This document shows, piece after piece, positions 17,656 to 18,573 of a stretch of DNA of 64,000 bases (position 1 is the stretch's first letter; the number at the start of each line of letters is the position of its first letter). Both the position numbers and the translations under genes were made by a program. Location: contig JAERTI010000055.1 of NCBI GenBank assembly GCA_016844925.1, positions 65,459 through 129,458 of the forward strand, in the 5' to 3' direction. A model generated the notes under the pieces. It saw only the letters and a list, made by a program, of their open reading frames with translations, did not search any database and was not told the origin of the DNA. Source of the DNA: Candidatus Uhrbacteria bacterium (GTDB lineage Bacteria > Patescibacteriota > Patescibacteriia > UBA9934 > GWF2-40-263).

Positions 17656-18573
17656 CTACAATTGCTTCAATACATTCTTTAGTTGCCGACACGCATCCTC
17701 CACCCCATCGTACTGCACGTGATACACCACAGATGGATTCCCCAAGGCAAACCGCGATACCCTTGCCCCCTTCTTTGAAACCAGCACCACAGGCGTCCCG
17801 CAGTTATGCGCGGCCACCAGCTCTCCCCCAGTCCCAAGAGACGGGTAGCTCACCTCTGCAATCACCACATCGTTATGTCGACACTCGTTCACATCCACCT
17901 CAAAAACCTCGTGAACATTCCCGCCTTCCATAATCTCATTAAACGTATGGTCTCGATGCGGAATACAGGTACGCACCCCCATGGTCTCACATACCTCTCC
18001 TAATGATTCGTACAAACGACATTGCCCATCAAAGTCTTCTACGTTCGTCAGGGCTCCAGCAATGTACGCGCTCTTCACCGTTGGCGTGAGCGTCTGGGCA
18101 AATACATTCTCTCGACTAAATCGCTCATGAGCATCTTCTGTCACGTACAAATCCCTCACACCGCCATCGATCAAACTCTTCCAGCACGGCTCACACGCCC
18201 ACCAGTGCCCGTACATGTACACATCAGCGCCTGTCGGATCGATCCCCGCGTCCGCTGCCGCCTTCATGAGCATGGGCTCAGCGTGACCTGGTGAATTGTG
18301 CAGATCGCACAGATCGTACCCTGTTCCCGATGGACACTCTTGAACCACACGTGGGCACACATGAATCTGCCCAGGCCCACGACTGTAACCATTTCCTGAA
18401 CGCGCGATGACCTCCCCATCTTTCACAAGCGCGGCCCCCACGGGAAACAATGGATCCCCAGCACACTCTTTACGCGCCTGCGCAGCTGCCTGCATAAACA
18501 TGTGGTCATGCGGGACATACTTGAGATGTCGATCCTCTGGCATGTAGGGATAACTAATGTTGGGTGAGCTCAT
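17656..18573 (-). CDS. Fusion protein with an N-terminal dCMP/cytidine deaminase zinc-binding domain and a C-terminal nucleoside 2-deoxyribosyltransferase-like domain
   Basis: The HAE...PCxxC-type zinc motif is GHAEPMLM...ACEPCW. The C-terminal SAYIAGAL...SLGTGGELVAAHNCGTPVVLV matches NDT-family YLAGPxF...DxGTxxExGxAxAxGKPV. Confidence 0.65.
   Translation of the reverse strand: MSSPNISYPYMPEDRHLKYVPHDHMFMQAAAQARKECAGDPLFPVGAALVKDGEVIARSGNGYSRGPGQIHVCPRVVQECPSGTGYDLCDLHNSPGHAEPMLMKAAADAGIDPTGADVYMYGHWWACEPCWKSLIDGGVRDLYVTEDAHERFSRENVFAQTLTPTVKSAYIAGALTNVEDFDGQCRLYESLGEVCETMGVRTCIPHRDHTFNEIMEGGNVHEVFEVDVNECRHNDVVIAEVSYPSLGTGGELVAAHNCGTPVVLVSKKGARVSRFALGNPSVVYHVQYDGVEDACRQLKNVLKQL

Follow-up and report, generated by a model that had tools for sequence, protein, structure and literature searches.

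The subject of this report is a single gene in a 64,000-nucleotide stretch of Candidatus Uhrbacteria DNA, the whole of which is called the window here. The gene encodes a zinc deaminase of the cytidine deaminase (CDA) fold fused to a domain which resembles the 2'-deoxynucleotide N-glycosidase DNPH1. With roughly even confidence we propose that this fusion protein is a bifunctional enzyme belonging to a non-canonical module for thymidylate in Uhrbacteria and their Patescibacteria relatives, in which deoxycytidine monophosphate (dCMP) would be methylated to 5-methyl-dCMP and then deaminated to thymidine monophosphate (dTMP), while the C-terminal domain (C-domain) would clean up by-products. Judged from the sequences, the order of methylation followed by deamination has slightly better than even chances, and the particular substrates suggested below for the C-domain are a tentative and less probable part of the proposal. 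The domain layout with its catalytic motifs, their conservation, the synteny, the Asp and Pro substitutions in the neighbouring proteins and the parallel operon in phages are observed; all substrates, the reaction order and the role as a cleaner are what we infer.

All cells are taken to make dTMP from deoxyuridine monophosphate (dUMP), with ThyA or ThyX as the enzyme, and the methylate-then-deaminate route is on record only for a small number of phages whose DNA contains 5-methylcytosine. The operon signatures described here, which predict dCMP methylation and then deamination, are found in at least 154 species-level genomes of one bacterial lineage. The searchable literature yielded no report of a cellular lineage with such a module in its core genome.

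The two-domain architecture of the protein is almost certainly real. The gene is an uninterrupted minus-strand open reading frame (ORF) of 305 amino acids (aa) with its start ATG at 18573 and its stop codon at 17656-17658. A protein-database search with the fusion protein returned 216 relatives, about 100 of which are full-length (295-316 aa, 47-97% identity); the named full-length homologues belong to Candidatus Uhrbacteria, Parcubacteria or Patescibacteria, and a scan with one genome per species found relatives of the gene encoded in 154 genomes. An earlier reading of the window from its letters alone (the first-pass annotation) had taken this for one gene and had named two ORFs separated by a sequencing frameshift as the alternative; the intact frame and the roughly 100 full-length homologues uphold the single gene and rule out a frameshift artefact. 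The gene is split in only one relative (L006/L077, pieces of 120 and 173 aa). Conservation counts for the fusion protein refer to an alignment of 98 full-length homologues, and the AlphaFold model computed on this alignment has a pLDDT of 94.5 and a pTM of 0.89. Both domains are known families and the pairing of an Asp-type thymidylate synthase (TS) with a deaminase is already known from phages; no report of a deaminase-DNPH1-like fusion was found in the searchable literature.

The evidence which carries the proposal lies mainly in the neighbouring thyA and dcd-like genes. In a HMMER alignment to TS structures, 'GNPHD' of the window ThyA stands opposite 'GVPFN' and Pro150 stands opposite His147; the sequence reads '...NVPCPF...' and '...LGNPHDTAG...' in these regions. 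Asn177 is otherwise invariant in TS, its replacement by Asp is the classical change that shifts specificity from dUMP to dCMP, and the positions of Asp180 and Pro150 are the two at which cytosine-specific TS homologues differ from uracil-specific ones (Liu & Santi 1992, Hardy & Nalivaika 1992, Graves 1992, as related in PMC8670742). Natural Asp-type TS homologues act on cytosine nucleotides, T4 dCMP hydroxymethylase (Asp179) being one example. The residue counts for ThyA and the dCTP-deaminase-like (Dcd-like) protein were taken from the genes at the fetched cluster loci. Asp occupies the Asn177 position at 68 of the 69 loci, and at all 68 where a deaminase accompanies the TS homologue; this association is phylogenetically non-independent, though it covers very divergent TS lineages, including one only 28% identical to the window ThyA and those of Adlerbacteria, Magasanikbacteria and Moraniibacteriota. 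A CDA-fold deaminase gene lies near the Asp-type homologue in each of these 68 loci and adjacent to it in most relatives. The sole Asn exception, L007, has canonical 'PCH' and 'PFN' in its thyA and is without such a deaminase. These signatures predict that the ThyA homologue is a dCMP methylase and not a dUMP-dependent TS. No report of an Asp-type TS in Patescibacteria was found in the searchable literature.

In the Dcd-like protein, Pro143 stands opposite the catalytic Glu in HMMER alignments to four Dcd structures. This position is Pro at 65 of 66 loci and Ser at one, and with TIGR02274 the protein stays under the cut-off. Its role may be that of a dCTP pyrophosphatase which supplies dCMP; no report of a Glu-less Dcd partner was found in the searchable literature. 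Because the cluster combines an Asp-type ThyA with a Glu-less Dcd, the deaminase most probably comes after the methylase and takes 5-methyl-dCMP as its substrate, instead of feeding dUMP to ThyA.

In the conventional arrangement the N-terminal domain (N-domain) would be an ordinary dCMP deaminase feeding dUMP to TS, and the C-domain would be a general hydrolase of deoxynucleoside monophosphates or a salvage enzyme, degrading scavenged deoxynucleotides to bases and deoxyribose 5-phosphate. Such an arrangement agrees with the dCMP deaminases that are the best PDB sequence matches of the N-domain, with a ThyA that passes the TIGR03284 cut-off and a Tmk that passes TIGR00041, with the dut genes within many clusters, and with the dependence on scavenged nucleotides which is assumed for Patescibacteria. 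It is hard to reconcile with Asp at Asn177 in every deaminase-linked locus together with Pro at His147, since mutagenesis and all characterised natural Asp-type homologues tie this Asp to cytosine substrates; a 'dcd' without its catalytic Glu, and the lack of such a deaminase at the only locus with a canonical ThyA, speak against it as well, and we consider it unlikely.

The N-domain matches PF00383 over aa 23-144 (E = 6.8e-9, 36 bits against a gathering cut-off of 25). The deaminase signature HAE...PCxxC given by the first-pass annotation needs one correction: H97-A-E99 and the pair C127-E-P-C130 are present, but the residue before C127 is Ala or Cys in the family and not Pro, so that the window protein has 'ACxxC'. 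A lineage-specific motif, 'GHWWACEPCW', is invariant, and the domain also carries an N-terminal motif, YPYMPxxR. In a second Cys/His cluster, H71, C73, C89 and H92 are invariant and C80 is nearly so. This extra cluster (aa 71-92, window 18298-18363, minus strand) lies upstream of HAE and resembles a structural metal site, as in some dCMP deaminases. Against solved structures the N-domain profile ranks the Streptococcus mutans dCMP deaminase 2hvv first (7e-9), followed by the cyanophage S-TIM5, human DCTD and T4 dCMP deaminases, and with the canonical dCMP deaminase (ComEB) model TIGR02571 the fusion protein scores 24.3 bits where the cut-off is 219.45. Such matches, together with a score so far under the ComEB cut-off, indicate a divergent member of the dCMP-deaminase branch.

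The type of one-carbon transfer can be judged from the companions of thyA. The gene adjoins that of dihydrofolate reductase (DHFR) in almost all loci, Tmk is constantly in the cluster, and the C-terminal tail of ThyA is TS-like ('...MQIAV'). T4 dCMP hydroxymethylase is without such a tail, and hydroxymethylases yield tetrahydrofolate, not dihydrofolate. The overlap of DHFR and thyA, the TS-like tail and the constant Tmk point to methylation rather than hydroxymethylation. This bears on a route similar to MilA/MilB and BcmA/BcmB, in which dCMP would be hydroxymethylated and deaminated to 5-hydroxymethyl-dUMP, from which the DNPH1-like domain would release 5-hydroxymethyluracil as the product. 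Pairs of a TS homologue and an N-glycosidase of the nucleoside deoxyribosyltransferase (NDT) family are known, MilB is a top structural match of the C-domain, 5-hydroxymethyl-dUMP is the preferred DNPH1 substrate, and the window ThyA has a polar Asn where T4 dCMP hydroxymethylase has its water-activating Asp145. Besides the coupled DHFR, the tail and the Tmk, the absence of the glycosidase domain in about 40% of species and the Pamexvirus TS, which shares the Asn and Phe signatures and comes from phages with 5-methylcytosine DNA, argue the other way, and this route is quite improbable.

Phages offer a precedent for methylation. According to a 2024 preprint, phage 'dCMP deaminase' genes beside Asp177-type TS genes encode 5-methylcytosine-selective deaminases, a class (mSCD) which its authors describe as polyphyletic; 5 of 7 associated phage TS homologues made 5-methyl-dCMP, and the pair makes thymidine nucleotides from 5-methyl-dC nucleotides, for example in Xp12 and PaMx74 (10.1101/2024.12.05.627091). 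The best phage match of the window ThyA is a Pamexvirus TS (161 bits, 36.5% identity, E = 2e-52). The operon of phage PA_LZ02 holds a nucleoside triphosphate pyrophosphohydrolase, TS, dCMP deaminase and DHFR, and its TS and the window ThyA both have 'NVPCP', the 'P-Y-D' signature, Asp at N177 and Phe at Trp83 of E. coli TS.

As in Xp12 and PaMx74, the module might instead supply 5-methyl-dCTP to a genome with pre-replicative 5-methylcytosine, with the deaminase diverting part of the pool to thymidine nucleotides. The four functions are those of the Pamexvirus operon, including a candidate dCTP-removing enzyme, and the phage deaminase acts at the triphosphate level. The DNPH1-like domain and Tmk indicate monophosphate chemistry, however, the cluster shows no evident kinase dedicated to 5-methyl-dCMP, and we know of no cellular genome reported to be fully substituted with 5-methylcytosine; the chance of such a supply function is very low. 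Equally improbable is a fuller form of the proposal, in which Uhrbacteria and related Patescibacteria would have no dUMP-dependent TS at all and would run phage-type cytosine methylation in core metabolism, part of the 5-methyl-dCMP pool entering the chromosome as pre-replicative 5-methylcytosine and the rest being turned into dTMP by the fusion enzyme, which would also destroy hydroxymethyl or uracil by-products. A milder version, in which cells would have a third route to dTMP but 5-methylcytosine would not enter DNA, has about an even chance of being right.

The proposed pathway would begin with the conversion of dCTP to dCMP, for which the Glu-less Dcd-like protein is a possible enzyme, and the Asp-type ThyA homologue would methylate dCMP to 5-methyl-dCMP with formation of dihydrofolate, which the translationally coupled DHFR would recycle. 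The N-terminal zinc deaminase of the fusion would then convert 5-methyl-dCMP to dTMP, and Tmk would phosphorylate the product. The same deaminase would also make unwanted 2'-deoxynucleoside monophosphates of the uracil type, and the C-domain would cleave their N-glycosidic bond by hydrolysis. One candidate substrate is 5-hydroxymethyl-dUMP, which could originate in hydrated intermediates of the methylase; the exocyclic-methylene intermediate shared in TS chemistry can be hydrated (PMC8670742). Another is dUMP, which could arise from unmethylated dCMP and would be unusable by an Asp-type TS. The chemistry is expected to be that of DNPH1: Glu251, positioned by Tyr170, would attack C1' while the 5'-phosphate is held by Ser245 and by Ser273 of the partner subunit, and a covalent deoxyribosyl-phosphate intermediate would be hydrolysed, giving the free base and deoxyribose 5-phosphate.

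The assignment of the C-domain comes from profile and structure searches. PF05014 matches the fusion over aa 170-271 (E = 2.7e-5, 24.7 bits), below the gathering cut-off of 28.8, and a direct PDB sequence search with the fusion protein matched rat Rcl/DNPH1 over 'SLGTGGEL'. A profile built from 18 C-domains of the family found rat and human Rcl/DNPH1 at about 1e-10, BcmB at 2e-8, BlsM at 7e-8, MilB at 2e-6 and true NDTs at about 2e-4. Foldseek matched the model to DNPH1, MilB and NDT structures with a probability of 1.00 and TM-scores on the target of 0.68-0.80, the best PDB matches being human DNPH1 8rpt and MilB 4ohr. The relation of the C-terminal half to DNPH1, on which the first-pass annotation had staked its case, is therefore borne out; the motifs which it had quoted lie at aa 170-175 ('YIAGAL') and aa 245-263 ('SLGTGGELVAAHNCGTPVV'), and the catalytic Glu which it had proposed to look for in a structure prediction is present as the nucleophile E251. 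Its broader label of an NDT/DNPH1-type fold has to be narrowed to the nucleotide-cleaving DNPH1/MilB type and away from the NDT nucleoside transferases, given the sub-threshold PF05014 score and Ser245 in place of Asp. NDTs bind the 5'-OH through an Asp where the DNPH1 type has a phosphate-binding Ser, and since a Ser pair would bind the 5'-phosphate here, a nucleotide and not a nucleoside is the expected substrate.

The roles of the DNPH1 residues listed in Table 1 follow PMC10603095, PMC10483697 and PMC12751057. In the alignment to the human sequence the water-activating Glu55 is not kept, P205 standing in its place. DNPH1 His56 contacts uracil O2, the corresponding residue of MilB, which acts on cytosine nucleotides, is Glu, and the preferred DNPH1 substrate is 5-hydroxymethyl-dUMP (PMC10603095). 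His206 of the fusion aligns with His56 and is of the DNPH1 type, which favours a uracil-type base. The C-domain looks like a 2'-deoxynucleoside 5'-monophosphate N-glycosidase whose core is DNPH1-like and whose base pocket deviates somewhat.

The C-domain is an optional part of the protein. The 'PSLGxGxE' motif is intact in 40 of the loci whose gene is complete; full-length members with Gly replacing the nucleophile Glu (L072) or with a scrambled motif (L039) were also found. About 28 loci have shortened forms of 263-274, 235-245 or 207 aa without the catalytic segment, which always keep the first strand and the terminal 'QLKNVLKQL' helix, and in Adlerbacteria and Magasanikbacteria the deaminase stands alone (about 150 aa). 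The eroded-domain loci are L005 and L041-L073 (e.g. L005 8001-8714). Full and short forms are both found with every ThyA subtype, which suggests that the C-domain was lost repeatedly. As far as these patterns indicate, the predicted glycosidase seems to be accessory and part of the C-domain seems to be structurally needed.

The same erosion, in which the first strand and last helix always stay, would also suit a C-domain without catalysis, serving as an oligomerisation scaffold or as a nucleotide-sensing regulator in place of the dCTP/dTTP allosteric site of classical dCMP deaminases. The full-length L072 with Gly at the nucleophile, the unconserved Asp80 equivalent and the pTM, which suggests rigid packing of both domains, can be added on this side. 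Conservation far above the average column at Glu251 (97/98), Ser245 (96/98), Tyr170 (93/98) and Ser/Thr273 (91/98) is difficult to explain in this way, as are standalone relatives which have the same motifs and of which one lies inside a thyA-DHFR operon, and a non-catalytic role is regarded as improbable.

Such relatives were found by an exhaustive C-domain search of representatives, which gave 496 matches at E<=1e-3 and 97 at E<=1e-10, most of them standalone proteins of 135-160 aa with the same motifs; a separate homologue search which used the C-domain alone as query gave only 6 proteins, and one which used the standalone protein P0125 gave only P0125 itself. The standalone gene in a thyA operon is known from one locus, L007 (5162-6923), where a 140-aa DNPH1-like gene lies between canonical Asn-type thyA and DHFR. 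This locus also has a Glu-containing 378-aa Dcd, a Dut nearby and no CDA-type deaminase. Its place between a thyA and a DHFR of canonical type suggests that the standalone gene deals with a by-product which TS chemistry yields in general. Independent fusions connect every component with a single pathway: DHFR, deaminase and DNPH1-like domain in P0128 (481 aa), Dcd-like (Pro variant), deaminase and DNPH1-like domain in an ORF of L080 (897-2531, 544 aa), and DNPH1-like and DCD-like domains in P0196 (410 aa).

Several observations weigh against the proposed module. The closest solved relatives of the N-domain are ordinary dCMP deaminases, and BLAST found no similarity between the Pamexvirus deaminase and the N-domain. 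The phage deaminase mSCD-B5 works on triphosphates and not on monophosphates (10.1101/2024.12.05.627091), which makes the phosphorylation level of the substrate uncertain here. A canonical Dut gene lies within the cluster in 31 loci, so that dUTP/dUMP metabolism persists in these organisms; the presence of Dut showed no correlation with that of the C-domain, Dut accompanying 14 of 42 full forms and 12 of 29 short ones. In the C-domain the position of human Arg30, which serves in base recognition, is Thr (T176, in the alignment to the human sequence), and the Asp80 column holds Asp in 32, Ala in 22, Ser in 15 and Gly in 12 of the 98 sequences, the window protein having Asp. Finally, the C-domain is lost or eroded in about 40% of species, and its activity is therefore dispensable.

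The positions of the features discussed are collected in Table 1.

Table 1. Features of the fusion gene and of the thymidylate-related genes around it, with positions in the window.
Feature	Position	Strand	Basis or conservation
Whole fusion gene, 305 aa and stop codon	17656..18573	-	Intact ORF, homologues, AlphaFold model
CDA-fold zinc deaminase domain, aa 1-165	18079..18573	-	PF00383, invariant residues
Deaminase H97	18283-18285	-	Invariant in 98 sequences
Deaminase E99	18277-18279	-	Invariant in 98 sequences
Deaminase C127	18193-18195	-	Invariant in 98 sequences
Deaminase C130	18184-18186	-	Invariant in 98 sequences
Predicted DNPH1-like 2'-deoxynucleotide N-glycosidase domain, aa 166-305	17659..18078	-	Family profile, Foldseek
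Y170 (human Tyr24; tunes Glu, excludes 2'-OH)	18064-18066	-	93 Tyr, 5 Phe of 98
H206 (aligned with human His56; base contact)	17956-17958	-	80/98
D227 (aligned with human Asp80; general acid)	17893-17895	-	Asp in 32/98; sequence alignment, variable helix
S245 (human Ser98; phosphate binding)	17839-17841	-	96/98
E251 (human Glu104; nucleophile)	17821-17823	-	97/98
S273 (human Ser128'; phosphate binding, partner subunit)	17755-17757	-	83 Ser, 8 Thr of 98
dCTP-deaminase-like protein without catalytic Glu	15390..16055	+	PF22769 E = 4e-26; Pro143
Dcd-like Pro143 codon	15816-15818	+	Opposite catalytic Glu (E138 in E. coli)
Thymidylate synthase homologue, predicted dCMP methylase	23267..24100	-	PF00303 E = 3e-54; Asp180, Pro150
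ThyA Asp180 codon	23561-23563	-	Opposite E. coli N177 in HMMER alignment
Dihydrofolate reductase	22743..23270	-	PF00186 and PF01872; start overlaps thyA stop by 4 nt
dTMP kinase (tmk)	24182..24925	+	PF02223; TIGR00041 88.2 against cut-off 83.25

The window is a housekeeping stretch of a Patescibacterium, with genes for PrmC, L25, FtsW, GyrB, NusG, L11, L1, GatB and MiaA, and further for MiaB, ThrRS, DnaE, PheST, TyrRS, ClpB, RadA and RecG. A recurring gene order, seen in the homologue contigs and in 80 species loci, runs gyrB, secE, nusG, L11, L1, dcd-like, [fusion], DHFR, thyA, (dut), tmk, two membrane proteins and gatB. In many relatives thyA, DHFR and the fusion are co-directional with overlapping or adjacent stops and starts, and distant Patescibacteria (32-36% identity), among them a Moraniibacteriota metagenome-assembled genome and a complete 931-kb chromosome, have the one-strand order thyA, (DHFR), dcd-like, fusion. 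The first-pass annotation had placed the fusion between dcd and a DHFR-thyA-tmk cluster and had read from this a dedicated salvage or remodelling route for pyrimidine deoxynucleotides. The placement is right, but unrelated ORFs intervene on both sides, and the fusion and thyA are 4.7 kb apart in the window, an insertion of three ORFs (18610-22746) lying between the fusion and DHFR-thyA. The functional grouping with dcd, DHFR, thyA and tmk likewise stands by synteny, but the cluster is not a canonical dUMP-based one.

The same annotation had also pointed to nucleotide-depleting antiphage systems, and a defence function of this kind would have a general resemblance to deaminase-based defence in its favour. 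PADLOC gave no match for the fusion or its six neighbours, the gene keeps its place among housekeeping genes in 154 species genomes, and in relatives it is translationally linked to thyA and DHFR; the suggestion is disfavoured, its chance being minimal. PHROGs gave no match for the fusion protein, and Foldseek against viral models matched the domains separately, with no convincing full-length phage fusion.

Some other features of the neighbourhood were recorded. The insertion at 18610-22746 (plus strand) holds three ORFs without Pfam match, two of about 107 aa and one for an acidic protein of 1224 aa with 'GADTGADTG' repeats, and close relatives have a comparable insertion (L005, L008-type loci). 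At 16093-17580 (plus strand), between the dcd-like gene and the fusion, are ORFs of 226 and 219 aa without Pfam or PADLOC match; the GC content there is about 62% against about 52% around, and it may be a foreign insertion. A 540-aa ORF without Pfam match lies between gyrB and nusG (9967-11589, plus strand), in a GC-rich stretch at 10-12 kb (0.62). At 58012-60199 (plus strand) there are two adjacent proteins with weak type IV secretion pilin-like N-termini, the second with a peptidase C39-like domain. Among loci L015-L083 many contigs of species representatives are titled 'uncultured Gammaproteobacteria bacterium' despite clear Uhrbacteria/Patescibacteria synteny, the title presumably being a placeholder or mislabel.

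The module makes an alternative cellular route to thymidylate directly testable. If the proposal is true, this would be a third cellular dTMP route, which bypasses dUMP, and the automated annotations 'thyA', 'dcd' and 'dCMP deaminase' in Patescibacteria would be functionally misleading. The natural deaminase-DNPH1 fusion would give independent support for the DCTD-to-DNPH1 pool-sanitation logic of human cancer biology, and the choice of reagents would gain new deaminases selective for 5-methylcytosine and new DNPH1-like hydrolases. Should the improbable fuller form with 5-methylcytosine in the chromosome be true, phage-style base substitution would have its first example in a cellular organism.

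Among the known systems, the Lactobacillus-type NDTs (PF05014) have the fold and the Tyr/Glu covalent-catalysis core in common with the C-domain, but their profile scores are weaker (2e-4 against 1e-10) and the fusion has the phosphate-binding Ser pair. MilA/MilB and BcmA/BcmB also pair a TS homologue for cytosine nucleotides with a nucleotide N-glycosidase of the NDT superfamily, and MilB and BcmB rank among the best sequence and structure matches of the C-domain. They differ in acting on ribonucleotides, MilB having Phe17 where the fusion has Tyr170, and in using Glu instead of His for cytosine recognition and Arg for the phosphate (PMC10603095); the free base is made for antibiotics, without a deaminase or DHFR.

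The closest module is that of phages Xp12 and PaMx74/Pamexvirus, which has the same four functions and TS signatures as the Uhrbacteria cluster. The present one differs in its cellular host and its place in a conserved core neighbourhood, in a Dcd-like protein which would replace the MazG-like pyrophosphatase, in the added DNPH1-like domain and Tmk, and in a deaminase without detectable similarity to the Pamexvirus one. The closest parallel to the fusion protein itself is human DCTD followed by DNPH1, where enzymes of these two families follow one another in the order proposed here, with pyrimidine 2'-deoxynucleoside monophosphates as substrates. The Tyr, the Glu, both phosphate Ser residues and the base-contacting His of human DNPH1 are all present in the C-domain of the fusion, and the proposed cleaning would be the job which DNPH1 has downstream of DCTD in human cells. 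Here, unlike in the human pair, both domains are in one polypeptide, Thr stands at Arg30, the Asp80 equivalent varies, the deaminase is divergent ('GHWWACEPCW' and the extra Cys/His cluster), and the setting is a bacterial operon with an Asp-type TS and not the salvage of epigenetic bases.

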